From a virus: a stretch of DNA of 64,000 nucleotides. This document shows, in pieces, positions 1 through 20,900 of this stretch; the first letter of the stretch is position 1; the number at the start of each line of letters is the position of its first letter. Location of the stretch: IMG/VR virus record IMGVR_UViG_3300022774_000002. One strand, 5' to 3'. A program made the translations under genes and the position numbers. The notes beneath the pieces are model-generated. The model saw nothing but the letters and a program-made list of their open reading frames with translations, did not search any database and was not told where the DNA came from.

Positions 1-168
1 ATGAGTTCCAGGTAGAAGTGCTTGACGCTCTAAAAGATCCGTCCACAGTTGAAAAACAAGAACTACGTAACGAATACCTTGATCTAACAATATCTGATGA
101 GATTGAAGCTCTTGAAGCTATGGAAAATCTTGATGAGTTCCAAGTAGAAGTGCTTGACGCTCTAAAAG
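1..168 (+). repeat. 36-nt direct repeat (1-36 vs 133-168, 35/36 identical) encoding (D)EFQVEVLDALK twice, 132 nt (44 codons) apart
   Basis: atgagttccaGgtagaagtgcttgacgctctaaaag at 1-36 versus atgagttccaAgtagaagtgcttgacgctctaaaag at 133-168. Both copies are in the giant ORF frame. Confidence 0.9.
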
Positions 169-3100
169 CAGTTCAACAGGATGAACCTGATTCTTCAGCA
201 TTGCCAGCACCCGAAGATGATACCTTCACAACACAGTTGCAAAATGTGCTCAGTAATCAAGGCTTTCAAAACTCCCCACCTGAAAGGAAGTTACAGGAAG
301 CTATACGCCTACAACTTGAGAGTGGTGAAAGTCTATCAGCTCCACAACTTTTTTACGGAGCTTCCACATTCTTTGGTCAAGGTCAATACAACTCGCAACA
401 GGTCTATGATGTGTTAGAAGTTGCTGTTAACCAATACCTTGAAGCACAAGGTTTGATGAATGTGAATGTCGATAGTACGACCGCAGTTGATAACATAGAT
501 AAAATCCAAGCGATAGAAGCACGATTGCCTCGAATGTCAGATCGCACCGCAGCACGCGACGAAAATCAGCAGTATTCCACTCCTTTCCATTATTCATACT
601 TGGTCAACTGGGTAGCTAACTTACAACCCGATGATGTCGTTGTTGAACCTTCAGCCGGAACAGGTAATTTAGCTTGGGCTGCTAAGGTTATTGGTGCTGA
701 GGTGCATGTCAATGACATAGGACAATTTCGCCACCATCTCTTACAGCAAAACTTCCAAAATGTAACGAATGTCGATGCTTCTAACATTGCACAGCAGCTC
801 CCTAATGTTAATGCGACATTAGTTGTTATGAACCCACCTTTTAGTAGCACACGCGGACAACGCAAAAACCTTACGCTCGGTATGAACATGGTAGAGTCCG
901 CTCTCGAAACACTACAACCTGGTGGCAGACTTGTCGCTATTGTCAACGGGGGACGTGACCTTACACCTGAAATGCGAGCGGGTGAAGCTCCTGGTGGCGG
1001 TCCACATTTCAACGCTGATAACTACCGAAAGATCTGGAATAGAATAGCAAGCAAACATGCCGTGAGAGCAAACTTGCACGTCAGTGGTGAAGTATATAAA
1101 GAGTTCGGTACTACTTTCAATACTCGATTACTTGTTATTGATAAATATCCAGTTGTCATAAATGAACCGATACGGAATCAAACAGACGGATCACTGAAAT
1201 CTGAATATGACACGATGCATAAACAACGTGTCGACACTATCAAAGAAGCAGTAGAACTACTGGAAGGAGTTAGATATGAGCGTTCCGGAGAACAATCATC
1301 CAGTGAATCAACACGCCAAACAACTACTGAGACAACTCCCGGAGGACAATCCGTATTACCCACACAACCAGGACAATCCACAACTCCACAGTCTGATCCT
1401 TCTGGAGTGGTTCCTGGAGGAGATAGTGCCGTTCAACCCGGAGATGGAACAACGCCTCCCCAAACAAACGTGGACAGACCTGGAACAGAAGGCACGGGAA
1501 CTACGGGACATGGGGACAGAAGCCGCGTGGAAATGGATGATGATCAAACAGGAGACACGGAAAGAGATGGAACTGGAACCGGACTTCAACCCGATAGCCG
1601 AACTGACGGAAGCGAAGAGACTGATGCAGGGGGCGTGGATGATGGCGGACGCAGTGCAGACACTAATATACGAACAAGTACACAACGAGAAAATACAACC
1701 CAATTAGACGAATCCGAAAGCACTAAACAGGTAGATGCTGGTAAGTCTTGGATGCCTGCTGCGGACTCTCATGTCATTATGGGTAAAGAGGTTAGCCTCG
1801 TTGAAACTGTATCGCTTGGACTTATTGATAGTCCTGATGTGGCTAACGTTGATGTTAATATTGCTGAGCCTGCCAAATCCCGATATTCCAATGCACAGAT
1901 GAAAGCAATCAAGTTGAATATCCGTGCACACGATGCACATATTGAACCTGAAATCTTAGGAGACGCACCCACGCGTCGTGGCATGTATAACGGTGATGAT
2001 ACAGGTGTTGGGAAAACATGGATCGCAGCAGGAACTATCATTCACTACCAGAATCAAGGTATTACGAAGCATATCGTTGTGGGAGCTGACAAGAAATGGC
2101 TTAAAGATTTTAATGAAGTATTTACACTCGCAGGTGGTAACGCAGATACCCTATTTGAACTCGGCAGCCAAAAGAATTTACCAGCTTCTGGTGTTATGTT
2201 AACAACTTACGGCACACTTCGCGGTAAAGGTCAAGAAACAAAACGGTTGAGTCAAGTATTAGAATGGGCTACAGGACAAAAACCTCCGCAATCCTTACTC
2301 AGTCCGCAGACAGACTTTGAACTCGCACACTTTGGAGAACTGCCCCGAACTTTTGCTTTAGCTGTCACTGAATACAATGCTGGTAATCCGATGCCAACAC
2401 GCGTCACTGATCTGATAAACGAGTGGAACGGTCTGTCGCAAGGCACTGGACAATCTATTGATGAAATCCCGGATTCTTATATAAATAGCTACCAAGACAT
2501 ACTCAAAGAACAAGAAACACTCATGGCTCTCGAAGGAGAGGTTGGTCCAGCTGAATGGATGAAAAATGCTGCGGGATATGACGGCACAATCACCTTTGAT
2601 GAATCACATAACATGAAAAACTCTGAAGGTGAGAACGCTACAAACACAGGTATACGGGGTAGACAACTCCAGAGATTACTTCCAGACGGACGCGTAACCT
2701 ACTATTCTGCTACAGGCACAACCGTTATTGACAACATCGCCTATATGGAAAGATTAGGTATATGGGGTAGAGATAAACCGTTTGCCAATTCTGAAGACTT
2801 TATCACTGATATGAAAAACGGGGGCTTAAGTGCTCAAGAAGTCATGGTACGTGATCTGAAAGCACAAGGCTTATTTATTTCTCGTGGTCTTGATATGTCA
2901 GATGTTATGGTAGACGATCTTGTTCATGAGTTGACACCTGTTCAACGACAAACCTACAACGAACTTGCTCATGCATGGCAAGAGATCAGATTATATCTAC
3001 ACCAGTATCTTGGCAGTCTTGAAGTGCTTGCTGAAGAATCTGATGGCGGTAAAGGTGATGTCGGTAAAAAGAAAGGGGATATTTGGGGTGAATACTACTC

Positions 3101-6100
3101 TAAACAACTTGACTTCTTCCAAGCAGTGCTAAATGCTTTCAAAATGCAGACTGTTCTTGAGGACATGAAAAAACAACTTGATCAAGGAAAAAAGGTGTCC
3201 ATCCAGTTCACGAACACCTACGAAGAATCACAAAAACGACAAGTTGACCGCGCAGAACGCGAAGGTATTGACATTAGTGAAATTGAATTTGGAGCGCGTG
3301 AGTTTTTGGAAGATTATCTTGACCCCGAAACAGGTGTATTTCCTACCTATGATTATGAGGTTATCTATGATCCTGTATTAGATAAAGACACATTGCGTCC
3401 TGTGACAAATAGCACTAATCAAATTATAGAAATCAAATATACGGATGCGCGCGGTCAACAAAAGGTGGAACGTGTGCCACCCGGTAAGCCTATACCCAAT
3501 GTGAACAACATTCAGAACCGTGAACGTATACTTGGATTAGTCTATAACTCTCACATGCCTGAACCCCCGCTTGACCAATTTGTTCAGATGTTCAAGGATA
3601 GAGGACAGGAGATCGCTGAGATTACAGGTCGAGAGTCTCGATACTACCGTAATGAAGAAGGTGAACGACAAAAAGAAAAGTTAAGTGGTGGTGATGCTGC
3701 ACTGCGTAAACTTGTCGAAAATTTCAATGATAATGAGTTGTTCGGTCTCGCATTCTCTAAAAAGGGTGCTACCGGTGCGAATTATCCTGCTACTGATCCG
3801 AACCATACCATCGTCCAGTATATCATTCAAGCAGGTTGGGAAGCTGACACACTCAAACAAGGTATGGGACGACACAAACGTTCTAATGAGGTTGCTCCCC
3901 CTGAAATCAAAAACACCTATACCGATGTAATTGGAGAAAAACGATTTGCGTCTACTGCGGCAGCACGGATGGCAGAAATGGGAGCTACAACCCGGTCACT
4001 TGCTGCTGGGGGAACTGGTCTTGATATATTTGATTTTGATGTTAAGTATCTACAGACAGAATACGGAGCTAATGCATTATATGATTTCTTTTCTGAACTC
4101 AACGAGGGATATACCTTTACTGTGCCTGGAGAAACAAACCCTGACGGTACACCTATGGTAATAGGCATGTATAGCAGTGAGGAAGCAGGAATTACTGGTA
4201 TAGATGTTGTAACTGGATTGAGCATTGAACTTGAACAGAATATGGTAAAAAAAGATAAAATGCCACCTGTAAAGCGATTTCTCAATCGTGTGCTTGGATC
4301 ACCAAGTATAGAAATCCAAGACACTCTATATGCCGAATACTATCGCAGATTACAGACAAGATTATCTCAAGCTAAGGCGGAAAACACACTTGATGTAGGT
4401 GTCGGAACACTACCCATAAAAAATGCAGAGATTGTCAACAATACAGTCCTCGCTACTGACCAAGAGTCCGGTGCAAATACATACGGCACAATCGTTCAAG
4501 CTGATGAAGAAGTGCCAAAAATCAATTTCGACGAACTCAAAACGATGATGACAGCTGACTCCCATTCAAACTACTGGTTTGTTGAGGATACAGAAGGTAA
4601 TGTATACCTTGATAAAGAAGTTCCCGCTCGTGTTGATGCAAGCACAGGTGAATCAAAACCCTGGGTTAGACGAACACAACCTGATGGCACAAATAGATAT
4701 GGTGAAGCTGAAAACGCTTATGGTGAAGGTTGGACACTGCAAGAGATCCGTGTTAGTGTCCGTGAGGATGGTTCTGAATCATGGTCTTTAGGAAATACAG
4801 AAAATGGTAGAAATAACCAGTTAGGTAGCACCATATACGACGAAATGATTCATGCACGATCATCTGAAGAAGTTGATGCTGCATTCAAAGACAAATGGGA
4901 TGCCAAGTATGATGAAACTTCAGCAACTAAAACTATATATCTACGCATGGTGCAGGGATTGATGTTACCTGTATGGGATAAAATCAATCCACCTATTGAA
5001 TACCCTGAAGGCACAGAACAATATAATCGTGAACTACGTAAACGTAGGCTTGTTCGTATCAATCTCGAAGATGGAACGGACATCATCGGTAGACAATTCG
5101 CATCGGTTGGAGAATACAATCAGATATTTGAAAACTTCGGTGTAGCTGCCCCTGACCAAAGTGTTACTGTCGCTACAGTCCCAATGAACCAGACTGGCGT
5201 GATGAACATGATAAATCAAGATGGGTATACCGTTGAACTTACGGATGGGTTATCTATTCGGACACGTCAACGTGCAGGACAAACTTATCTCGTCGTTGAA
5301 GGTGACCGGTCGCGACTCGAAAGCTTAATGAACGACAATATACTGGATCGCTTCCGTCCAGGTGGTGGTGGTTGGGTGTATTCCGTGCCTAACGATAACA
5401 TCACTACCTTGTTCAGTCGACATAAGCCTGTGCGTGCTAACAAACGCGGGGATATACTCAATATAAATTATGAAACTCCGGGAGGGACACCTAATGTTCC
5501 GGACGAAAATCAGACGGGAAATGAACAAGAATCTATTCCTACAGATCCAGAAGAAGCAAACAAACAACAAAAAGATAAGGTACGCGAAAGATTAGACGCT
5601 GCCGAAGTAGCTATACGTAACAGCATCTCACAAGGATGGGACTGGATCAATACCGAACGTATGGAGAGGTTTTCTATTATAGATGAGAGGTTATCTACCT
5701 TATCGTCTGAATTGATTGATGAATGGATAGAGGCATCTGATGAACTTACAGGTGTTAAAGTTTCACGCGAACGCAGTGAACGTATCCTTGCTGATAATAT
5801 CGGTAGCTGGATGGCTGAAGAAAAAAGCAAGCAAGATAGAATTCTTGGTCAAGAACATGATCAACAACTCACGGAAAATGAACACCTACAGGCTCTCGGT
5901 ATTGATCCTAATAACTGGCAAATCTGGACTGCGGAAGAACGCGAAGCAGAAGTAAATCGTATTTATGAAGCACTCTTACAACGTGAAATCAACGAGGAAG
6001 ATTTCAACATATCTCAAGCACAAGTGCAAGCTGTCAATGCCCTAATATCTGGTGAACTCGGTGATGTTGTCAATATCGCTGACACTGCAGACACACAACC

Positions 6101-9100
6101 CACTGAAGAAGGATGGCGACATGCATTCCCAAAAGGAAAAGCTGAACGCAATAAAGTGCGAGCAGAATACACAGCACAGGTGCAACAGATTATTACAAAT
6201 GAAACCGACTCAAAGGTGAAAGTGCGTCTGCGAAATGTAAATAAACAGTTGCAGTCAGGAGATTATTTCGGATTGCATGGTAGAACGATTCAATCTGGTG
6301 CTGAAGCTGCTCTTATAGCACAATTTATACGGAATCCACTCATAGAAAGCACACTCATACTGCTCCGCAAAGATAATAAGATTGTCCGTGCTGAATGGCT
6401 TTCACTTGGACAAACAGAGAACACGTCACCAGGAGTGAAAGCCGAAGTTGAACGTATGCTTGCAGATGAGAACGCTGACGACTTTATCCGAGTTCATAAT
6501 CACCCAAGCAAAGTAGCCAAGTTTTCTAATAAGGATATGAATACTGCCAATAACTGGCGTAATCATTTCGGCACACGGCTTGCTGAAGAAATTGTTATCG
6601 ATGAAGGGACTTATGCCCGAAGCCATTTTGACCAAGAAGGTGAAGCGCGCTTTGAGAACGAACTTCAATTAGACCTTGAAAATGGAACTATCGTCCAGCC
6701 TGAGTTTTTCGGTGCGTTTATGAAAACACCAAAGGGATGGACTACCTTAATGATGTTAGATGATGCTGGAAAGGTTGTCTCAGCAATGGATATTCAAGGA
6801 CTATACGATAAAGGTGTTCTTCAAAACAAACTTGAAAAGATACTTGAAATGACACCGAGAGCTACTCGGATGCACGTCATAGCTGGCAAAGGAAATGATG
6901 GAGCAGAACGCATCCTACATAATAACCTCTCAAATAATCCTGTTGTTGAGTCTATGTGGGTAGAGGGTAGACCTGTTAGATTACAATCTCCTTCAAATAG
7001 ACATCGGGTAAGTCGGGAATCAAGGGTCGCTCCTACAGATGACACAATTGAACGGAATATCGGAGGCACAAATCAGCGATTTGTAAAGATTGATCCTAAC
7101 GATCTAAGAGATGTAAAAGAGAAACGCAAACCTGTCATCATAGCTGGCATAACTCACGATCTTGTGAGAGATACCAATCGAGAAGATGTATCCAAGCGTA
7201 CGCGTGGCGATGCTGAACACATGGTATCAGCTGTTAGACGGGCAAAAGTAGATTTACTTGATCAAGAGAAACTCCAAGCTGCCCGGAATACGGTTATACA
7301 GGTTGTTGGACAAGAAACAAAATTTAAAGACGTGTTTGAAAAAATGGTAGGATTCCAACAACAGTTGCAGGGACTGGAATCTTATTATAATGCACTTGAT
7401 CAACTTGGCTGGGACAAGATTAAAGCTGACACTGTAGGAGATCTTAAGGCAATTGTAGATGAAAGCCCGACACTTCAAACGCCAGAGGTGTTAGCACTTT
7501 TTGAAGGTCATGATCCACAATCTGATGCTTATAATATTAATTTATCTGATATTCACAAAATAAAAAACACAGTGTTTGAAAAGAAACGGGCGTTAAGAGA
7601 TCAAAATATCAATCTCAGGGATCAAATAAGACATGATCATCATTCTGTACAATTTGCTGAGAGAACTATGGTTGATTCTGTTCAAGAAATGCTTAGTGAT
7701 CATAAGATAAGTATCGAACGCGTTGAAGATTTGTATAAATACCTTGATGAAGCACCGGCAGCGAAGGTAAAAGCAGCGTTAGATGACCTTTGGGGACACA
7801 TTTCAACGGAGCAAGCTGTCTATAACCTTGTCTTACAGGATGGGCATTTAAAAGCTTTATCTCCCACAGGTGATAAAAACATCAACGAAGGTATGTTAGC
7901 ATACACTTCATACAGTGCCTACTATAGGCGAAATGAACACTTTTATAACTATGGATTCATTTTGGATATGGAGAAGATACTAAACGAAATACCCAACGTC
8001 ACGGGAACTGTCCATGTTCGCAATGTGTGGCGTGAGCGAGCAGACTTAAATAACCCTGATGAAATCCGTGAAGCAATGGAAGCTTGGCATGATCCGGGTG
8101 ATGAGGACATAGTTATTGAAGTCCGTATGCCCCAAAATGTGTCTATAAACGATTACCTTATCGGTGTCATTGAAGATGGTGAGGTATATGTAAAATCTGA
8201 ATACAACACAGACAACGAAGGAGAATTAAGCGACTATGCAGCAGAACGTGATGTTGATAGTGCTTCTGTTATTGTAAATCCACGCCAGGATACTGAAATG
8301 TCCTTTGAGGGACAAGACTCTCTGAAAAATAAAGGTGCTAAAGAGGCTGTCCAATTTTTCTCTCAGATCGACGAGGAACTCGGAAAACGTGTCGGTAACT
8401 GGATACCCGCAATGCGTAAAGGTTGGAATGACACAATGGCAGTCTTTGAATCTGGACGACGCGGATTAGAGAAACTACGTAGCAAACCTGGTGCAAAAGC
8501 CACTCCTTTTGAAGCTGCAAGTAATGACCTTGACTTAGCAATGATAGACGCTGTTACACGGATCTCCGGAATACGCAATATCACCAACCCTGTGCTAAAA
8601 GAACGAAAGGCACTTATTACTCAGTTATCTAAAGCAGAAGGGATCAGTCGATCGCAACTCACCAGTGATATAAACGAAGCTATCTCTGACTATCGAGAAC
8701 ACAATAAACCGATAGAAAACAACGCTAACCTACGTGCCTATGAAGATGATGATCTCATGGCACAGGTGAAAGAATACGCGGATAAGGAAAAGGAAGCTTG
8801 GAAACAGATCATCAGACAAAGCGATGAAGATATTATCACCCTTGTCAAGGCTGCAGATAAAAATAATGAAAAGCTTACATATCCAAATGGTGAGCCGATC
8901 ACACCTCTCCCAATTGATGGGTTTCATTATGATCTCGAACGTGACGGTTGGGTGCAGATGTCAAAATGGAATGCAAAGCAAGGACGTATGCGTCCAGCAA
9001 CTGAAACTGACATGCAACGGACTTGGACAACTGCGGAAGTGTTCGCACAGGCTGAGCGTTTCTATGTGCCACACCATTATACCAAAGAACATCTACTCAC

Positions 9101-11087
9101 CCGTAAAGATCGTGTCAATAAACTCCTGGAAGAACTAAACTATGCTGACGCAACAAATGATGTTTCGGACATCGATGACATGGTTGGGATACAACATGAA
9201 GGTGAAAAATACATCTTTAGACATACAGGTGAAGATTTTACCGCGGTAGAAGCTGTTATACAACGTGCCAAGGAGTACTGGAACAACGAGGACGCAAGTG
9301 TCCGTCAATATATCAATGCTCATGATGATGGCACACTCGCACGTTTTGGACACTTGGAACATCAACGCAAAACTGATGACCGACACTATGTGAAAGACAT
9401 CGAGGTTCATATCAAGATGATCGAACAAGCTACACGAAGAATGTCCTTGATCGCCTACTTTGGACAAGATCATGGTATAATAGGTAAGTCTCCTCGATTC
9501 AAAGCCCGTATGATGCAGATGTCAAGGTATTCGCATACTCCAGAAGAAGCAGCTTTACTCGCTATGTATACCGCGATGGGTGCTGACAAAATTGGAATGT
9601 TTGAACACCTGTATGACTTAGGTTCTGGCACACCTAAACAGGACTTCGACATTTTAGGCAGATGGAAAGACAAAGAAACAGGTGATCTCAAAGACCTGGA
9701 TATTGATCGATTAGAGTTATCCGACAACCAGTTGGAAACACTTCGTAAGATTGGACTCTTGGAAAAAGATGGAAATGAAAATTGGCGAGTTGTGGGTAGT
9801 AGCGTGAAAGCGCGCCACCAAACTATGCAACGACACTTCGCTGATTACTCATCTACGATCGCTGGTAGGCTGAAACACTTTATGAACACTCTGAATTCCA
9901 CTGCTGACGGACCGATACGTTCACTTACTGATAACAAAACTAACAAGCTTGTGTCAAAAGTGAACTCGGCAACGACTATGTTGACACTCGGACCGCGGAC
10001 AGCACTCCAAAACTTATCTGAACTGCCAAACATTATAGCTGCCGCAGGAATGAGTAACTTTATCAAGGGATTGAAGTTTATCAGTAATCCAGATAGCAGA
10101 CACCTTGTGAAAATGCTATCATCTGCTTTAGATCACGGGCATAGGTATATGGCAGAGACAAAAGGTGAACAATGGTATTTACAAAGTCCGCTGTCATTCT
10201 TTACGCAATCTGAGTTATTATCCCGTGAGTCTGGTGTTGCTATCGGATGGGTAAATGCGAAAGATAGGATACAAGCTTACCTTAATAATCCCTCACAAGC
10301 GAATCGACACGCCCTCGATGATGTGAAGATAAATAAGAATGTGATTGACGCATTCAAAACTGAAGCATCAGAAGCCGTTGACCTTGAAGATCTATTCACT
10401 GAAGCCGAACAACGTGTCCTTCATGGAAGTATGCCTGTCGGTGGGTTTCAGAAAGTTGGTGCATCATCTGCCTCAAACAAGTGGGTAGATATAATCGGGC
10501 AAGAACTACAACGTTCAGCTGTATATATGTCTCAGGATTTCCTCAAACGCTACGATGCTTTTTCAATGCCACCCTGGTTAGCAGAAAGACACCCGTTTGT
10601 AAATCTATTCTTCAAATACAGATCGTGGGGCTTTCAAAACCATGAGTTGCTCGCACGTAGGTGGAGACAAGCATGGCGACAAGGAAAAGAAGGTAACTGG
10701 ACTCCATTCCTAAATATGTCATTAGCAGCTGGCGTGCTAACACCGCTTGGAATTGGGGCATTAGGTTATGCTTTCACTGTATTTCAAGCTTTAGATGACG
10801 ATGATCCGTTTGCTCTTGAGATACTAAAAACCTTTACCGCAGCACAATCGTTTGGTATGGCTTCCATTCTTATTGAAGCTGTGGCACACGCAGGTGATAA
10901 TCCATTTCGATTGGAACACTCACTACGAGGACAATATAGCGGTCCCGCATTGAGTATTGCCACACGAATACTCGCACCTGTATTCACCGGTGATTTCAAA
11001 GAGGTCTTTGAACAACTCAGCCGAAGGTTGCCGATTTCACGAGAGGCACACTATCTGGGACTGAATAAGATTTTTGATGAGGAGTAA
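1..11087 (+). CDS. giant multidomain (polyvalent-type) protein, 5'-partial: N6-adenine DNA methyltransferase + Sbno/SNF2-like helicase + RadC/JAB-like domain + about 1480 aa unassigned C-terminal region
   Basis: Track ORF 18..11087 (3689 aa) begins at an in-frame GTG, but the same frame is open from nt 3 to the window edge, so the gene is truncated at its 5' end. Motifs read directly: EPSAGTG (645-665), NPPF (831-842), DDTGVGKT (1995-2018), DESH (2598-2609), QGMGRHKRSNE (3858-3890), HNHPS (6495-6509). Confidence 0.9.
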   Translation, partial: EFQVEVLDALKDPSTVEKQELRNEYLDLTISDEIEALEAMENLDEFQVEVLDALKAVQQDEPDSSALPAPEDDTFTTQLQNVLSNQGFQNSPPERKLQEAIRLQLESGESLSAPQLFYGASTFFGQGQYNSQQVYDVLEVAVNQYLEAQGLMNVNVDSTTAVDNIDKIQAIEARLPRMSDRTAARDENQQYSTPFHYSYLVNWVANLQPDDVVVEPSAGTGNLAWAAKVIGAEVHVNDIGQFRHHLLQQNFQNVTNVDASNIAQQLPNVNATLVVMNPPFSSTRGQRKNLTLGMNMVESALETLQPGGRLVAIVNGGRDLTPEMRAGEAPGGGPHFNADNYRKIWNRIASKHAVRANLHVSGEVYKEFGTTFNTRLLVIDKYPVVINEPIRNQTDGSLKSEYDTMHKQRVDTIKEAVELLEGVRYERSGEQSSSESTRQTTTETTPGGQSVLPTQPGQSTTPQSDPSGVVPGGDSAVQPGDGTTPPQTNVDRPGTEGTGTTGHGDRSRVEMDDDQTGDTERDGTGTGLQPDSRTDGSEETDAGGVDDGGRSADTNIRTSTQRENTTQLDESESTKQVDAGKSWMPAADSHVIMGKEVSLVETVSLGLIDSPDVANVDVNIAEPAKSRYSNAQMKAIKLNIRAHDAHIEPEILGDAPTRRGMYNGDDTGVGKTWIAAGTIIHYQNQGITKHIVVGADKKWLKDFNEVFTLAGGNADTLFELGSQKNLPASGVMLTTYGTLRGKGQETKRLSQVLEWATGQKPPQSLLSPQTDFELAHFGELPRTFALAVTEYNAGNPMPTRVTDLINEWNGLSQGTGQSIDEIPDSYINSYQDILKEQETLMALEGEVGPAEWMKNAAGYDGTITFDESHNMKNSEGENATNTGIRGRQLQRLLPDGRVTYYSATGTTVIDNIAYMERLGIWGRDKPFANSEDFITDMKNGGLSAQEVMVRDLKAQGLFISRGLDMSDVMVDDLVHELTPVQRQTYNELAHAWQEIRLYLHQYLGSLEVLAEESDGGKGDVGKKKGDIWGEYYSKQLDFFQAVLNAFKMQTVLEDMKKQLDQGKKVSIQFTNTYEESQKRQVDRAEREGIDISEIEFGAREFLEDYLDPETGVFPTYDYEVIYDPVLDKDTLRPVTNSTNQIIEIKYTDARGQQKVERVPPGKPIPNVNNIQNRERILGLVYNSHMPEPPLDQFVQMFKDRGQEIAEITGRESRYYRNEEGERQKEKLSGGDAALRKLVENFNDNELFGLAFSKKGATGANYPATDPNHTIVQYIIQAGWEADTLKQGMGRHKRSNEVAPPEIKNTYTDVIGEKRFASTAAARMAEMGATTRSLAAGGTGLDIFDFDVKYLQTEYGANALYDFFSELNEGYTFTVPGETNPDGTPMVIGMYSSEEAGITGIDVVTGLSIELEQNMVKKDKMPPVKRFLNRVLGSPSIEIQDTLYAEYYRRLQTRLSQAKAENTLDVGVGTLPIKNAEIVNNTVLATDQESGANTYGTIVQADEEVPKINFDELKTMMTADSHSNYWFVEDTEGNVYLDKEVPARVDASTGESKPWVRRTQPDGTNRYGEAENAYGEGWTLQEIRVSVREDGSESWSLGNTENGRNNQLGSTIYDEMIHARSSEEVDAAFKDKWDAKYDETSATKTIYLRMVQGLMLPVWDKINPPIEYPEGTEQYNRELRKRRLVRINLEDGTDIIGRQFASVGEYNQIFENFGVAAPDQSVTVATVPMNQTGVMNMINQDGYTVELTDGLSIRTRQRAGQTYLVVEGDRSRLESLMNDNILDRFRPGGGGWVYSVPNDNITTLFSRHKPVRANKRGDILNINYETPGGTPNVPDENQTGNEQESIPTDPEEANKQQKDKVRERLDAAEVAIRNSISQGWDWINTERMERFSIIDERLSTLSSELIDEWIEASDELTGVKVSRERSERILADNIGSWMAEEKSKQDRILGQEHDQQLTENEHLQALGIDPNNWQIWTAEEREAEVNRIYEALLQREINEEDFNISQAQVQAVNALISGELGDVVNIADTADTQPTEEGWRHAFPKGKAERNKVRAEYTAQVQQIITNETDSKVKVRLRNVNKQLQSGDYFGLHGRTIQSGAEAALIAQFIRNPLIESTLILLRKDNKIVRAEWLSLGQTENTSPGVKAEVERMLADENADDFIRVHNHPSKVAKFSNKDMNTANNWRNHFGTRLAEEIVIDEGTYARSHFDQEGEARFENELQLDLENGTIVQPEFFGAFMKTPKGWTTLMMLDDAGKVVSAMDIQGLYDKGVLQNKLEKILEMTPRATRMHVIAGKGNDGAERILHNNLSNNPVVESMWVEGRPVRLQSPSNRHRVSRESRVAPTDDTIERNIGGTNQRFVKIDPNDLRDVKEKRKPVIIAGITHDLVRDTNREDVSKRTRGDAEHMVSAVRRAKVDLLDQEKLQAARNTVIQVVGQETKFKDVFEKMVGFQQQLQGLESYYNALDQLGWDKIKADTVGDLKAIVDESPTLQTPEVLALFEGHDPQSDAYNINLSDIHKIKNTVFEKKRALRDQNINLRDQIRHDHHSVQFAERTMVDSVQEMLSDHKISIERVEDLYKYLDEAPAAKVKAALDDLWGHISTEQAVYNLVLQDGHLKALSPTGDKNINEGMLAYTSYSAYYRRNEHFYNYGFILDMEKILNEIPNVTGTVHVRNVWRERADLNNPDEIREAMEAWHDPGDEDIVIEVRMPQNVSINDYLIGVIEDGEVYVKSEYNTDNEGELSDYAAERDVDSASVIVNPRQDTEMSFEGQDSLKNKGAKEAVQFFSQIDEELGKRVGNWIPAMRKGWNDTMAVFESGRRGLEKLRSKPGAKATPFEAASNDLDLAMIDAVTRISGIRNITNPVLKERKALITQLSKAEGISRSQLTSDINEAISDYREHNKPIENNANLRAYEDDDLMAQVKEYADKEKEAWKQIIRQSDEDIITLVKAADKNNEKLTYPNGEPITPLPIDGFHYDLERDGWVQMSKWNAKQGRMRPATETDMQRTWTTAEVFAQAERFYVPHHYTKEHLLTRKDRVNKLLEELNYADATNDVSDIDDMVGIQHEGEKYIFRHTGEDFTAVEAVIQRAKEYWNNEDASVRQYINAHDDGTLARFGHLEHQRKTDDRHYVKDIEVHIKMIEQATRRMSLIAYFGQDHGIIGKSPRFKARMMQMSRYSHTPEEAALLAMYTAMGADKIGMFEHLYDLGSGTPKQDFDILGRWKDKETGDLKDLDIDRLELSDNQLETLRKIGLLEKDGNENWRVVGSSVKARHQTMQRHFADYSSTIAGRLKHFMNTLNSTADGPIRSLTDNKTNKLVSKVNSATTMLTLGPRTALQNLSELPNIIAAAGMSNFIKGLKFISNPDSRHLVKMLSSALDHGHRYMAETKGEQWYLQSPLSFFTQSELLSRESGVAIGWVNAKDRIQAYLNNPSQANRHALDDVKINKNVIDAFKTEASEAVDLEDLFTEAEQRVLHGSMPVGGFQKVGASSASNKWVDIIGQELQRSAVYMSQDFLKRYDAFSMPPWLAERHPFVNLFFKYRSWGFQNHELLARRWRQAWRQGKEGNWTPFLNMSLAAGVLTPLGIGALGYAFTVFQALDDDDPFALEILKTFTAAQSFGMASILIEAVAHAGDNPFRLEHSLRGQYSGPALSIATRILAPVFTGDFKEVFEQLSRRLPISREAHYLGLNKIFDEE
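540..1150 (+). other. domain: SAM-dependent N6-adenine DNA methyltransferase module of the giant protein
   Basis: Motif I-like VVEPSAGTGNL and motif IV VVMNPPFS in the order typical of gamma-class amino-methyltransferases. A QYSTP segment lies just upstream. Boundaries are approximate. Confidence 0.8.
1287..1730 (+). other. low-complexity T/G/D/S/P/E-rich linker (predicted disordered) between the methyltransferase and helicase modules
   Basis: The translation is dominated by runs such as SSSESTRQTTTETTPGGQS, GTEGTGTTGHGD and DGTGTGLQPDSRTDGSEETDAGGVDDGG, with no hydrophobic core pattern. Confidence 0.7.
1950..4010 (+). other. domain: Sbno (strawberry-notch)/SNF2-like DExH helicase module
   Basis: Walker A DDTGVGKTW and DESHNMKN. 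The C-terminal lobe has LAFSKKGATGANY and QAGWEADTLKQGMGRHKRSNEVAPPE, resembling the GRTHRSNQ signature of Helicase_C_4-type proteins, followed by KRFASTAAARMAEMGATTRS. Boundaries are approximate. Confidence 0.75.
6250..6640 (+). other. domain: RadC/JAB-like module
   Basis: RVHNHPSKVAKFSNKDMNTANNW matches the HNHPSG...S..D signature of RadC-type JAB domains. The preceding about 70 aa have the expected alpha/beta pattern. Confidence 0.65.
10698..10895 (+). other. C-terminal hydrophobic (TM-like) segments of the giant protein
   Basis: WTPFLNMSLAAGVLTPLGIGALGYAFTVFQAL and FTAAQSFGMASILIEAVAHAG are the only long uncharged hydrophobic stretches I saw in the 3689 aa. Confidence 0.5.
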
Positions 11088-16195: not shown

Positions 16196-16594
16196 TTATT
16201 CAGATTGTTTATTCTCAAGCCACTCCTTCACTTTAGCAAGAGGCATCTCCACATTTTTGTCGTTTGGTATATGTGCGATGACTTCTTCTTTGAAACGCTG
16301 ATACCAACGCATAGCGATGTCTTTATCACAAGTAGCGTCTAACAAAATACCTAAAGCACACTGAGCGGGACCGCTACCACCATAGCCCCAGTTGAAACCA
16401 TCGGGACTATGGTTTATGAGTGCTTGACTTGGTACTGGACTCAATTCAGTAAGACTATCAGGTATGGGATCACCGTTTTCATCTTCCTCACCGATATAAA
16501 CTGGAAATCCGCCCATAAGTGTTCGACTGGAACAGTCAAACAGATAGACCTTGTTTCTGATTTTAGTCTTAGAGTTATCACTCCTTTGATTCAT
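16196..16594 (-). CDS. hypothetical protein (conserved-looking NHSPDGFNWGYGGSGPAQCALGILLD core)
   Basis: 132-aa ORF. The Gly-rich core looks like a conserved phage domain of unknown function. No family name asserted. Confidence 0.6.
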   Translation of the reverse strand: MNQRSDNSKTKIRNKVYLFDCSSRTLMGGFPVYIGEEDENGDPIPDSLTELSPVPSQALINHSPDGFNWGYGGSGPAQCALGILLDATCDKDIAMRWYQRFKEEVIAHIPNDKNVEMPLAKVKEWLENKQSE

Positions 16595-17201
16595 GATTAT
16601 CTCCTATACTCATTGCCTCGCTTGCTTTACGCACCTTTTCAACATCAACACCAAGATAAGCCTGTGTAGTCTTTACATCCTGATGTCCAAGCATTTCCTT
16701 GACAGTAAAAATATCAGGTAAGATAGCATAAAGCCGTTGAGCATAACTCTTACGCAATGAATGTGTAGCGAGGTTGCCGTTCAAACCCGACCTTTCGCAC
16801 ACATCTTTGAATACCTGATGTGCTCGTTGCCTTGTGATCGAGACATGTTTTCCTTTTCGTTTCTGTCGCGATGGGAACAAGGGACGTTGTGGGTCTGTAT
16901 TCCCAAAGTATTCCTGATGCCACTCTATAAGGTCAGAGATTGCTTTCACGCCATCCGAATTGACTGGAACAGTGCGAGCGTTCTCTTTTCCTTTTACGAC
17001 ATACTTATTAAAGTGCAAAGTTTCAACAGGCTTGTCGTTCTGATAAACATCAGAGATTGTGAGAGCGAGCAGCTCACTAATCCGTCCACCTGTAGAAACA
17101 CCGATGAGAACGAGAGACTTATCACGTGTAGCAAATTCGCCATCAAAGCAGTCTGCTATTACACGGAGTTCGTCATTGCTGAGTGGTCTTGCTCCTCGCA
17201 T
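16578..17201 (-). CDS. int: tyrosine recombinase/integrase, catalytic domain only (207 aa)
   Basis: Catalytic signature in order: GGRISELLAL (Arg I), VVKGKENARTVPV (Lys), ATHSLRKSYAQ (His-x-x-Arg), LGHQDVKTTQAYL (His and the nucleophilic Tyr). GGAGA SD lies 4 nt upstream of the ATG. No N-terminal core-binding domain. Confidence 0.85.
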   Translation of the reverse strand: MRGARPLSNDELRVIADCFDGEFATRDKSLVLIGVSTGGRISELLALTISDVYQNDKPVETLHFNKYVVKGKENARTVPVNSDGVKAISDLIEWHQEYFGNTDPQRPLFPSRQKRKGKHVSITRQRAHQVFKDVCERSGLNGNLATHSLRKSYAQRLYAILPDIFTVKEMLGHQDVKTTQAYLGVDVEKVRKASEAMSIGDNHESKE

Positions 17202-17446
17202 AGTATCTCCTTTTCTCGTTGATCCCGCTCACAATCAATACAATCGGGTTCATGAGGTGTCGGACATCCACATTTATCGCAGAACTTATGCTCTGCTTCA
17301 AATCCGTATTTCTCGGACACATCATTTGCCCTTTGCGTCCATTCGGCATCGGTTTCATCTATACTTAGTGGACGCTTACAGACTACTTCAAGTTCATTGT
17401 TGCATAGTTCATTATAGCAACATTCACATTGAAATTCATTGTTCAT
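17159..17446 (-). CDS. Cys-rich (zinc-finger-like) small protein
   Basis: 95 aa with CECC...C near the N-terminus and CDKCGC...CIDC near the C-terminus. AAGGGG SD. The 3' end overlaps int by 43 nt in another frame. Confidence 0.65.
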   Translation of the reverse strand: MNNEFQCECCYNELCNNELEVVCKRPLSIDETDAEWTQRANDVSEKYGFEAEHKFCDKCGCPTPHEPDCIDCERDQREKEILCEEQDHSAMTNSV

Positions 17447-17483
17447 GGGTAACCCCTTATGGTAAAATAAGGTTGTCGTTAGG

Positions 17484-17581
17484 AAGGTGGGAAATCAGAC
17501 TCCCACCTTTTCAATCTGCCCAGTGCAGATTGAGATACGCAAGCAGGGAATTGAACCCTGCCATACGCACCAGCGTTGCGT
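17484..17581 (-). ncRNA. structured intergenic element, copy 1: tRNA top-half mimic (17536-17581) plus two hairpins (17511-17533, 17484-17509)
   Basis: Minus strand reads ACGCAA|CGC-UGGU-GCG|UAUG|GCAGGG-UUCAAUU-CCCUGC|UUGCGU|A, then UCAAUCUGC-ACUGG-GCAGAUUGA, then AAGGUGGGA-GUCUGAUU-UCCCACCUU. Homologous to 19572-19676 with compensatory changes. Confidence 0.7.
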
Positions 17582-17811
17582 TATTTAGAACATCCTATAC
17601 ACCTGTAGAAAATAAAATCAGGACGAACTTTTTCCCAATGATGCTCCATAGGTTTTCCGCATTCAGGACAATAAGCGTATTTATCCTTTAGCCCCTTTTC
17701 CTTGAGTAAATCGTTGCACCTGTCTACCCAATCGTAAAGAGATTCATTCGGTTTACGGTTGTTCTGGATTTCTTTTAATGCTTGGCTAATCTCTTTAGTC
17801 ATTTTAGTCAT
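17581..17811 (-). CDS. zinc-ribbon protein (76 aa)
   Basis: Start moved to the ATG at 17811, which overlaps the upstream stop as TAATG and has a GAGGAA SD. C-terminus CPECGKPMEHHWEKVRPDFIFYRCIGCSK has two CxxC pairs. Confidence 0.65.
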   Translation of the reverse strand: MTKMTKEISQALKEIQNNRKPNESLYDWVDRCNDLLKEKGLKDKYAYCPECGKPMEHHWEKVRPDFIFYRCIGCSK

Positions 17812-18167
17812 TAGTATTCCTCTGCTAACATTACCGTCATCAGACGATAAGCAGTTAGGAAATCGGATTCGTCCTCGCCCCATTCTTCATCATCTGGCAT
17901 ATCACACCTTGAATCTTGGAAGTAGTCAATCTTCCAGTAGATTTTAGGTTGTCCTTCAATCTGGACGACACCGAAATCGTGTTCTTTGTGTGGGTCATTC
18001 CCAGAAGGGAATTCGGATTGAGTTTTGATTGCCTTGATGACTTGTTGAAATACATCAGTTGGCAATCCGTTGACACCTTGAGTAAAACATACTTTACCAT
18101 AACTTATAGGTTGTGATAACACAGTTTTACGGAATATATCATTACGTATTTGCATTTGGGTCATCAT
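17811..18167 (-). CDS. DUF3768-like protein
   Basis: GNDPHKEHDFGVVQIEGQPKIYWKIDYFQD ... LMTVMLAEEY matches my recollection of the DUF3768 signature (NDPxGEHDFG...WKIDYYD...MLAsEY) seen on plasmids and phages. Needs an HMM check. Confidence 0.65.
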   Translation of the reverse strand: MMTQMQIRNDIFRKTVLSQPISYGKVCFTQGVNGLPTDVFQQVIKAIKTQSEFPSGNDPHKEHDFGVVQIEGQPKIYWKIDYFQDSRCDMPDDEEWGEDESDFLTAYRLMTVMLAEEY

Positions 18168-18175
18168 AAGAAAAT

Positions 18176-18199
18176 CAGGGACATGTCACCATGCCCCTG
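18176..18199 (-). promoter_or_regulatory. conserved intergenic RNA hairpin with GNRA (GUGA) tetraloop, copy 2
   Basis: Minus-strand reading is CAGGGGCAUG-GUGA-CAUGUCCCUG: a 10-bp stem including one G-U pair, followed by AUUUUCUUAUG containing the next start codon. Confidence 0.6.
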
Positions 18200-19139: not shown

Positions 19140-19274
19140 TTAGTAGCGTCTCTTACCACGCAGACGACTCCGTAATCTTTCACGTCTCTTACGACGTTCC
19201 AGTTTTAACTCTATACTTGACAGAATAATACCTGTCGCAACTAATAAGAATGAAAGAATACACGTTGCCAACAT
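19140..19274 (-). CDS. small membrane protein (44 aa: one TM segment plus Arg-rich tail), below the ORF-track cutoff
   Basis: Hand translation gives MLATCILSFLLVATGIILSSIELKLERRKRRERLRSRLRGKRRY. The ATG overlaps the upstream stop as TAATG. Stop at 19140-19142. Confidence 0.5.
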   Translation of the reverse strand: MLATCILSFLLVATGIILSSIELKLERRKRRERLRSRLRGKRRY

Positions 19275-19510
19275 TAGTCTGCTACCTCCGATAACTCGGT
19301 TTGCTGTGCTTCATAGGATTCTGTTGCCAGAAACAGAGCAGTTCCGAAACTTGTGAGTTGGGATGCATGGAATTCACCGCTCTCCCACCCTTTACGAATG
19401 AAAAATACCAAATACCTGTCATCACCTAACTCACGGATAACTACACCGCTTGATGTGCCGTTATCATCGTGTTTCACAACGACACTCTCATTGACTTCAA
19501 ATTTTTCCAT
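19274..19510 (-). CDS. hypothetical protein (78 aa)
   Basis: AGGAAAGGA SD upstream of the ATG at 19510. First gene downstream of tRNA-like element copy 2. Confidence 0.6.
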   Translation of the reverse strand: MEKFEVNESVVVKHDDNGTSSGVVIRELGDDRYLVFFIRKGWESGEFHASQLTSFGTALFLATESYEAQQTELSEVAD

Positions 19511-19571
19511 TGTTCCTTTCCTGTGTTCTGTAGTAAAATACTACTTATGAGATTTGCGACTCATGAATGTT

Positions 19572-19676
19572 GTAGGGAGTCGTTGAATAACCGCTCCCTA
19601 CTTCAACTCCACACAATGCAGAATTGAATGCGTAAGGATGGAATTGAACCATCCTAAAACACACCAGTGTTTACGC
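19572..19676 (-). ncRNA. structured intergenic element, copy 2: tRNA top-half mimic (19629-19676) plus two hairpins (19602-19628, 19572-19601)
   Basis: Minus strand reads GCGUAA|ACAC-UGGU-GUGU|UUUA|GGAUGG-UUCAAUU-CCAUCC|UUACGC|A, then UUCAAUUCUGCA-UUG-UGUGGAGUUGAA, then GUAGGGAG-(14 nt)-CUCCCUAC. Confidence 0.7.
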
Positions 19677-19681
19677 GATGA

Positions 19682-20053
19682 CTAATAGTATGTTGATTCC
19701 AAATTTGGAATGGGATCATCAGAATAGCGTGTCGGTTCTGTTGTGAATTCACAATAACCGTTCACTATGCCATCAGATAAATCCTGTTCTCTGATTGTTT
19801 CCACATAAACATGACGTTCTAAATCTAACCAGAGAAAACCAAGCATAAAATAGTCGTTCCATTGGAAAAAATCAGTAATCACACCAGCGTCAATCGTTAT
19901 CTCACCTTCAAAAAATGCGTTAGTATGGTCTGCTACAACTTTACCAGCGTATTCAGATAAGACTTGACGAAAATCTTGATTACACCATGCTACCTTACGG
20001 GAGTCAGCATCGTTCAAATCAATGGATTCTAAATAGTGGGAAAAGGTATTCAT
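19682..20053 (-). CDS. hypothetical protein
   Basis: 123-aa ORF. Its start overlaps the upstream stop (ATGA). Confidence 0.6.
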   Translation of the reverse strand: MNTFSHYLESIDLNDADSRKVAWCNQDFRQVLSEYAGKVVADHTNAFFEGEITIDAGVITDFFQWNDYFMLGFLWLDLERHVYVETIREQDLSDGIVNGYCEFTTEPTRYSDDPIPNLESTYY

Positions 20054-20866: not shown

Positions 20867-20900
20867 AACAGGTAGATAGTTTTGATACCACCTACCTGTT
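20867..20900. repeat. GGTAG...CTACC intergenic hairpin family, copy C (larger loop)
   Basis: AACAGGTAG-(16 nt containing GATAC)-CTACCTGTT forms a 9-bp perfect stem. Confidence 0.65.

Follow-up and report, generated by a model that had tools for sequence, protein, structure and literature searches.

The virus record IMGVR_UViG_3300022774_000002 of IMG/VR, of which we analysed a stretch of 64,000 nucleotides (nt) referred to here as the window, carries between its small minus-strand genes a conserved, structured RNA that mimics the top half of a tRNA. The first copy of this element spans 46 nt (17536..17581, minus strand, which is the sense strand) and is followed by two hairpins within 17484-17581. 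It is neither a tRNA gene nor a plain remnant of a phage attachment site (attP). A sequence-only reading of the window had proposed an acceptor-like stem, a miniature D-like hairpin and a canonical T arm with no anticodon arm; its transcription of 17581->17536 was exact, letter for letter, and the structure was borne out, including by covariation among related phages. The label 'copy 1' used in that reading implied a further copy, which we located at 19676->19629 (19629..19676, minus strand, 48 nt) with two hairpins of its own.

Read along the minus strand, copy 1 is closed by an acceptor-like stem of 6 base pairs (bp) formed by 17581-17576 (ACGCAA) and 17542-17537 (UUGCGU). Inside it lie a D-like hairpin of 3 bp with a UGGU loop (17575-17566, CGC-UGGU-GCG), a UAUG linker (17565-17562) and a T arm of 6 bp with the loop UUCAAUU (17561-17543, GCAGGG-UUCAAUU-CCCUGC), and an unpaired A stands in the discriminator-like position at 17536. 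The T-loop word GGTTCAATTCC occurs a second time in the window, at 19640-19650, where it belongs to copy 2; this copy reads GCGUAA / ACAC-UGGU-GUGU / UUUA / GGAUGG-UUCAAUU-CCAUCC / UUACGC / A from 19676 to 19629 and departs from copy 1 by compensatory changes in all three stems. Folding z-scores of the two modules (element plus hairpins) were -7.0 for copy 1 and -6.4 for copy 2, with none of 200 shuffles folding as well. A covariance model (R1), built from ten seeds that include both window copies, scored copies 1 and 2 at 47.7 and 54.7 bits, the next best segment of the 64-kb window reaching 13 bits, and detected orthologues outside the seed with E = 1e-7 to 1e-13.

The minimum-free-energy fold of copy 2 is the tRNA-like one, whereas for copy 1 single-sequence folding gives a different optimum, with GGUGCGUA paired to UGCGUAUC. 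Copy-1-type elements contain a tandem repeat, ACGCA-ACGC[A] (17566-17581 in the window, minus strand), made up of the 5' strand and the D-like stem, and the 3' strand of the D-like stem resembles the acceptor 3' strand; it is this repeat, together with the look-alike 3' strands, that gives rise to the alternative pairing. The comparative sequence data described below support the tRNA-like fold over that alternative, and a conformational switch in copy 1 is possible.

Relatives were gathered through several routes. A search of one genome per species across 185,579 species with the T arm and 3' strand of either copy returned a single match, which was not a tRNA gene; it was a 7-kb phage-like contig, syntenic with the window and carrying orthologues of both copies, that had been binned into a metagenome-assembled genome of Candidatus Poribacteria. 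Homologues of the nearby recombinase led to related contigs of about 60-85 kb in marine and sponge data sets, and in all we recognized nineteen elements in about ten related phage contigs, one to three in each. R1 found one to three elements per contig where the recombinase was at least 70% identical and none in contigs where it was 65-66% identical; two more members were found in IMG/VR. Exact-protein look-ups additionally placed the same phage in six metagenome assemblies with an identical element; these near-identical contigs show zero variation within the element and document recurrence of the phage across samples.

Other searches were less productive. Distant blastn of both modules against 50,697 cultured-phage records yielded T-arm matches at chance level and no others, nothing came from a megablast of the 16.5-20.5 kb region against cultured phages, and single-protein searches of IMG/VR with three flanking proteins gave no close relatives. 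A metagenome scan with the degenerate pattern GGTTYAAYTCCNNNCTYRCGYA was dominated, among the matches listed, by a real tRNA-Leu gene. One metagenome contig, L146 (~5215-5273, plus strand), holds a possible mini-element of the form GUGUAA ... GGUUUAAUUCC ... UUACGU-A, with two G.U pairs in its closing stem. A literature search for phage tRNA-like, minihelix or mini-tRNA elements turned up no description of such an element, the literature covered being limited and no proof of novelty.

Seventeen distinct elements were curated for pair counts. Because MAFFT could not align the 5' strand in register, sequences were N-padded to equal length for R1 (alignment A4) and for the pair counts (alignment A7), the latter being fitted by hand to the structure. 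Across these seventeen, 99.4% of cells in the acceptor-like stem, the T stem and the first downstream hairpin (HP1) hold standard pairs, and both partners have changed in 14 of 20 pairs, values that none of 500 column shuffles reached; when the 3' partners were slid as a control, pairing fell to 28-48%. Since this alignment had been hand-fitted, RNAalifold was rerun without fitting on a plain MAFFT alignment of 15 natural modules, where it recovered the closing stem, the D-like hairpin, the T arm and HP1, predicting 24 pairs of which 17 carry compensatory changes. Over four stems the non-Watson-Crick pairs comprise 27 G.U, 0 A.C and 2 others, the transition-type ones being G.U without exception; as they would be A.C on the opposite strand, selection has acted on the sense-strand fold, that is, on RNA. 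All copies lie in gene orientation. The sequence-only reading had staked its RNA-module idea on related phages keeping the pairing, and they do so, with compensatory changes and with every transition-type mismatch on the G.U side.

What varies and what does not among the copies follows the tRNA top half closely. The acceptor/T branch is 6 + 6 bp, 12 bp in continuous stacking, in 17 of 17 curated copies. Branches of 8/4 and 9/3 bp, likewise summing to 12, are known besides the usual 7/5, and a 6/6 split is not described there (PMC5389517). The last linker base (G or A) could always replace A6 opposite U67 (alignment A9, columns 9, 27 and 47), so the junction can be drawn as 6+6 or 5+7 bp, the total staying at 12. 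T loops read UUCAAUU, UUUAAUU, UUCAACU or UUCAAAU, closed by GG/CC; the GG of the D-like loop is invariant within a varying context (UGGU or GACGG), on stems of CGC/GCG, CGCA/UGCG, CAC/GUG, CAU/AUG or CGU/GCG. In our structural model this GG stands where G18 and G19 of a D loop would, so as to form the elbow of a tRNA. Every copy has an A in the discriminator position with a U next to it, and CCA is not encoded. Only 4-5 nt separate the D-like hairpin from the T arm, and the acceptor strands are 34-36 nt apart.

The element thus has the UUCRANY loop closed by G53-C61 and the 12-bp branch of a tRNA gene and lacks the cloverleaf of about 70-90 nt with an anticodon arm. The sequence-only reading had held that it is not a tRNA gene, and the programs agreed: ARAGORN called 0 tRNA and 0 tmRNA (transfer-messenger RNA) genes in the whole window, and Rfam returned nothing at gathering score. 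A permissive Rfam scan of 17000-18000 gave mascRNA-menRNA (RF01684) as its sole match, at 16.3 bits (E = 3.1) against a gathering score of 42.5, and the element is therefore not a member of that family.

Two further hairpins follow each copy. After copy 1, HP1 (17511..17533, minus strand) begins 2 nt past the discriminator A and has 9 bp and an ACUGG loop, and HP2 (17484..17509, minus strand) has 10 bp, a 6-nt loop and no U tract after it; the pair had been predicted from the sequence and stands at 9 and 10 bp. After copy 2, HP1 (19602..19628, minus strand) starts directly past the discriminator A and has 12 bp, of which four are G.U pairs valid on the minus strand only, and HP2 occupies 19572..19601 (minus strand). 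In relatives HP1 starts 0-3 nt past the A, has 9-12 bp and the loop consensus ANUGG, and its loop-proximal pairs are usually CUGC/GCAG, with CUAC/GUAG as a compensatory variant; double compensatory changes occur in 8 of 8 scored pairs. At the HP2 position relatives also have a hairpin, of variable sequence. An intrinsic terminator was considered and rejected at 17484-17581 and 19572-19676, where none was called, since HP2 is followed by UCCUAACG or CAACAUUC and there is no U tract. Neither module has a sigma-70-like promoter. With neither promoter nor terminator at the modules, both seem to be internal to a single polycistronic unit. Elsewhere on the sense strand of the early gene cluster, hairpins that have U tracts and resemble terminators do occur, at 18176-18199 (minus, just upstream of a DUF3768 gene) and at 20867-20900 (minus, ~20.9 kb), and these may bound the transcription units that hold the two modules. 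Also considered and rejected were an HK022 put-like antiterminator and a boxB-like site, as the modules are not placed next to a promoter and their loops do not correspond.

Three features had not been anticipated, the first being the junction with the upstream gene. The sequence-only reading had noted that copy 1 begins inside a stop codon, and the coordinates of the open reading frames (ORFs) agree: the upstream ORF (17581..17883, minus strand) ends in TAA at 17583-17581 and shares its last base with the element. Every copy-1-type element that follows a called gene starts exactly at the third base of that gene's TAA (9 of 9), and the proteins encoded by these nine genes belong to about seven unrelated families; the UA/A junction therefore belongs to the element and not to any single gene. 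The ORF upstream of copy 2 (19682..20053, minus strand) ends in TAG at 19684-19682, 5 nt before the element, and in this clade, as also in a number of unrelated phage contigs, the distance from an upstream stop codon to the element is 0-10 nt.

The second feature is that, in pairwise blastn, the module forms an island of 82-96% identity between flanks that fail to align (for example against L130, L256, L266 and L267). L129 has an additional gene with a copy on either side; the homologous gene of L130 is followed by a single copy. Such an island may mean that the element marks or promotes mosaic junctions. The third is the near fixity of the acceptor-like stem, for which the 17 elements show just three alleles: ACGCAA/UUGCGU in 12, GCGUAA/UUACGC in 4 and GCGUGA/UCACGC in 1, with C2-G71, G3-C70, A6-U67 and A73 invariant. 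The L257 element combines the copy-2 position with the copy-1 stem.

The wider setting is that of a marine or sponge phage with terminase and portal genes on the plus strand of the window and, at about 12-27 kb, small minus-strand genes that chiefly encode domains of unknown function. Downstream of copy 1 the predicted integrase ORF (16578..17201, minus strand) was confirmed as a tyrosine recombinase of 207 amino acids (aa) consisting of the catalytic domain only (PF00589, E = 6e-25; phrog_216). It overlaps by 43 nt a Cys-rich 95-aa ORF (17159..17446, minus strand, start 17446) that found no family match in profile searches, and an overlapping small ORF and recombinase recur as a pair in L127, L128 and L129. 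A split integrase was rejected, as the 95-aa ORF fails to align with the N-termini of longer recombinase homologues. The product of the ORF upstream of copy 1 is also present, in a 76-aa form, on near-identical contigs. Downstream of copy 2 lies a 78-aa ORF (MEKFE..., 19274..19510, minus strand) that is conserved in this place after copy-2-type elements in relatives. About 20 nt before its start, just upstream of its ribosome-binding site, is a third small hairpin, GUAGU-AUUUU-ACUAC (19530..19544, minus strand), which in relatives takes the compensatory form GUGGU-AUUUU-ACCAC (L127 ~977-991; also L128, L129, L254 and L257).

At the edge of the window a 3689-aa ORF (18..11087, plus strand) joins a small methyltransferase domain to a Strawberry-notch-type helicase (AAA_34, Helicase_C_4) and a RadC/JAB domain, and looks like a polyvalent, anti-restriction-type protein; the relative L128 has a 4246-aa version. 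This ORF had first raised the suspicion of an N4-like phage with hairpin promoters, which was discarded as its domains are not those of a virion RNA polymerase.

Similar folds were sought beyond the clade by scanning IMG/VR with the pattern TGGT-N10-13-GGTTCAATTCC, in which the loop sequences are fixed. The scan returned chiefly real tRNAs and coding sequence, and with them unrelated contigs bearing the same mini-fold (L057, L108, L076, L031, L056, L096, L114 and L006), the first three with compensatory T-stem changes among themselves; 5 of 10 such minis start at most 10 nt past an upstream stop codon. Contig L002 has four tandem minis (5866-6416, minus strand) in about 1 kb of non-coding DNA, each directly followed by a hairpin, the last of which is terminator-like, and no real tRNAs in the locus. 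The minis of L004, L006, L015 and L114 lie near real tRNAs, hammerhead type II ribozymes or DUF3800-VII RNA: Hammerhead_II at L004 4175-4243 (minus) and L006 4837-4906 (plus), and DUF3800-VII RNA at L114 1304-1381 (plus), each have minis and real tRNA arrays no more than about 1 kb away. Rfam searches of 13 related or similar loci identified those real tRNAs, Hammerhead_II and DUF3800-VII RNA, and no family that covers the minis. On sequence grounds a wider class is likely; it is not proven, because the pattern fixes the loops and because a 6-bp closing stem (G.U allowed) would by our own estimate arise by chance beside about 1 in 10 T-arm-like hairpins.

Among known systems the closest likeness is to the t-elements of plant mitochondria, which carry the T-arm motif GGTTCRANYCC and are located at the ends of mRNAs (Forner et al. 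2007, PMC1920247). RNase P and RNase Z cut t-elements, which acquire a CCA tail without being charged (bioRxiv 10.1101/2024.09.09.612099), and two of them lie inside the end of a reading frame and leave mRNAs without a stop codon (PMC1920247; bioRxiv 10.1101/2024.09.09.612099). The phage element shares with them the tRNA-like fold, the motif (here GGTTCAATTCC), the site at the end of a cistron within an mRNA and the lack of an encoded CCA; it starts at the upstream stop codon or 5 nt past it, with no promoter or terminator at the module. It differs in that t-elements have recognizable full-tRNA homologues and non-canonical cloverleaves, whereas the phage element has 46 nt, no anticodon arm and a 6/6 branch, is followed by two conserved hairpins and occurs in a bacteriophage.

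The mascRNA and MEN-beta RNAs of MALAT1 and NEAT1 (RF01684) are likewise small tRNA mimics in a longer transcript, mascRNA being excised by RNase P and RNase Z so that the flanking RNA receives its ends, and this family gave the only full-length, if weak, Rfam match; mascRNA retains a short anticodon-like stem, however, and comes from a eukaryotic nuclear long non-coding RNA. By analogy, the element would be best filed with the t-element/mascRNA kind of tRNA-mimic processing signal, as a variant. The TMERs of murid herpesvirus 68 consist of a tRNA mimic and then one or two hairpins, parted by tRNase Z. Their layout is that of the phage element, a tRNA mimic followed directly by two hairpins, but TMER hairpins are pre-miRNAs (precursor microRNAs), for which bacteria have no pathway, and a TMER is an RNA polymerase III gene that encodes a full cloverleaf. 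Canonical tRNAs and the tRNA-like domain of tmRNA have in common with the element the T arm, the 12-bp branch, the elbow between GG and T loop and an A73-type discriminator; unlike tmRNA, in agreement with the ARAGORN result, the element has neither a tag reading frame nor pseudoknots. The PeSL cassettes of T4-type phages, reportedly described by Arbiol and colleagues in 2010 as a promoter and stem-loop at the 5' side of genes, are also short conserved intergenic motifs that flank variable early genes at mosaic junctions; they are 5'-side promoter stem-loops where the phage element is a 3'-side tRNA mimic.

We favour, at roughly even confidence, a reading by analogy in which the element would act as a phage t-element in the minus-strand early polycistronic transcript, recruiting RNase P, RNase Z and the CCA-adding enzyme. 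The reasons are that the fold is under selection as a sense-strand RNA, that the invariant features are those that end-processing enzymes read, that a site just past a stop codon, with HP1 close behind the A, suits punctuation, and that plant t-elements set a precedent. RNase P grips the elbow and locates its cleavage site by distance along the T-arm/acceptor stack; RNase Z and CCA-adding enzymes likewise take the elbow as their reference point, all of them using the geometry of the stack rather than its sequence (PMC4919913). In the proposed course of events the mimic would fold once the ribosome has left the adjacent stop codon and would be taken for a pre-tRNA by the tRNA-maturation enzymes of the host. 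RNase P would then cut at the 5' edge of the element, and RNase Z, or RNase E together with exonucleases, would cut after the discriminator A, releasing an RNA of about 46 nt that the CCA-adding enzyme might tail. These cuts would part the upstream cistron from the downstream one and leave HP1 and HP2, 0-3 nt past the predicted 3' cut, as a 5'-terminal stem-loop cap that would shield the downstream mRNA. Terminal hairpins at the 5' side stabilize bacterial mRNAs, and by this likeness HP1 and HP2 may form such a protective cap.

Several observations weigh against a phage t-element. A 5' cut by RNase P in copy-1-type elements would take the last A of the TAA and leave the upstream mRNA without a stop. 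A pure processing signal should permit the acceptor stem to drift, and just three alleles are seen. The copies in L254 (at 4421), L256 (2919) and L257 (4575) do not directly follow an ORF, and in the unrelated L002 the four minis share 1 kb of sequence that contains no ORFs for a cut to part. The link to a host consists of the one 7-kb relative binned with a Poribacteria metagenome-assembled genome. Processing leaves unexplained why the element meets stop codons as it does, why its acceptor stem is fixed and why it is distributed like a cassette.

The conserved acceptor stem and the ORF-free L002 array, which processing alone does not account for, keep open a role in trans, in which the excised RNA of about 46 nt would itself be the product, acting on a protein that reads tRNA shape and the acceptor end, the operon serving merely as a means of expression. 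We consider this unlikely though worth holding in view. Such an RNA could sequester, as a decoy or sponge, a tRNA-binding enzyme or a host defence nuclease or toxin directed at the acceptor end or T loop, or it could be a substrate of an aminoacyl-tRNA synthetase that does not need the anticodon, such as LeuRS; Larkin and colleagues are said to have found in 2002 that a minimal Escherichia coli tRNA-Leu with the elbow and A73 and without an anticodon arm can still be charged. Consistent with a trans product, the acceptor-stem sequence, A73 and U74 are kept while the T, D and HP1 stems drift, the tandem minis and hairpins of L002 resemble an array of small-RNA genes, and the minis of L004, L006, L015 and L114 have real tRNA genes and hammerhead ribozymes as neighbours. 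Yet the sole conserved single-stranded segments are universal tRNA features, an RNA without an anticodon loop cannot decoy anticodon nucleases, profile searches and look-ups identified no partner among the phage proteins, and the kinship of L002-type minis to the clade is uncertain because the pattern fixed the loop sequences; plant t-elements, moreover, are tailed with CCA and still not aminoacylated (bioRxiv 10.1101/2024.09.09.612099). In another reading the element would go uncut on its 5' side and, after a cut or trimming by exonucleases at the A, would stay on the upstream mRNA as a tRNA-like 3' cap that blocks 3' exonucleases and permits CCA repair, as do the 3' tRNA-like structures of plant RNA viruses. 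The direct abutment or overlap with the upstream stop codon would fit, an attached element would avoid the cost of destroying the TAA, and an unencoded CCA next to a conserved discriminator A is what such a cap would have. We nevertheless think a cap improbable, as it explains neither HP1 and HP2 nor the copies that follow non-coding sequence, and acceptor/T-arm stacks are generally good substrates of RNase P (PMC4919913).

Readings at the level of DNA fare worse. The sequence-only reading had offered as its second hypothesis an attP core taken from the 3' end of a host tRNA, and this is not supported: the 5' strand and D-like hairpin are conserved and covary, against the unconserved 5' strand expected of a plain attP remnant, there are several copies, and no exact bacterial attachment site (attB) at the 3' end of a tRNA gene was found for either 3' half in the 185,579 species genomes, an unsampled host being still possible. 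More broadly, a tRNA-derived attP core, an integron-attC-like cassette site for the tyrosine recombinase or a hot spot of homologous exchange could account for copy-1-type elements often lying just upstream of the recombinase operon, for the 82-96% identity between non-homologous flanks, for the gene bracketed in L129 and followed by one copy in L130, and for element ends that form a conserved inverted repeat. The excess of 27 G.U over 0 A.C, though, speaks for selection on the fold of one strand, and the invariant positions are the tertiary ones of tRNA. The element occurs one to three times per genome at a distance from the recombinase that varies from 0.3 to 3.5 kb, the L267 copy has no recombinase match in its locus, and one chromosomal recombinase homologue has no tRNA gene within 10 kb and no mini nearby. 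A DNA-level primary function is thus very unlikely in our judgement. For an integron attC in particular, the core sites RYYYAAC and GTTRRRY are absent, the ends being ACGCAAC or GCGTAAC and CTTGCGT or CTTACGC, and an IntI-type integrase would be expected in place of a 207-aa catalytic domain. Nor do we give much credence, indeed scarcely any, to a decaying tRNA pseudogene or functionless selfish repeat: the element is plausibly tRNA-derived and has multiplied within genomes, but compensatory changes keep four helices across phages whose recombinases are 70-91% identical, and the bases of the tertiary contacts are invariant.

A bolder and frankly doubtful extension of the t-element reading would take the element as a mobile 'punctuation cassette' that moves together with early genes and provides them with a stop codon. 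RNase P would cut in UA/A as in animal mitochondria, the upstream mRNA ending in UA would be polyadenylated to UAA or handled as non-stop, and the mini-tRNA, with its conserved acceptor stem, would receive a CCA tail and be recognized by a specific enzyme of the host or the phage, which would bind or even charge it. If true, this would be a bacterial-virus version of the tRNA punctuation model, one that also drives gene shuffling.

Mitochondria, plant organelles, mammalian long non-coding RNAs and a herpesvirus all provide established cases of tRNA mimics that recruit RNase P and RNase Z to punctuate transcripts, whereas the examples from bacteria and phages are mainly real tRNA genes embedded in operons. 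A mimic of just 46 nt that lacks the anticodon arm, is conserved with covariation in a clade of phages and is linked to stop codons would enlarge the regulatory repertoire of phages and would give a minimal natural substrate for the bacterial enzymes that process tRNA ends. The conserved sequence of its acceptor stem hints at a specific protein partner, and as an island of identity between unrelated genes the element may mark or promote mosaicism in phage genomes. These elements escape tRNA finders and Rfam altogether and so point to a gap in the annotation of phage genomes.

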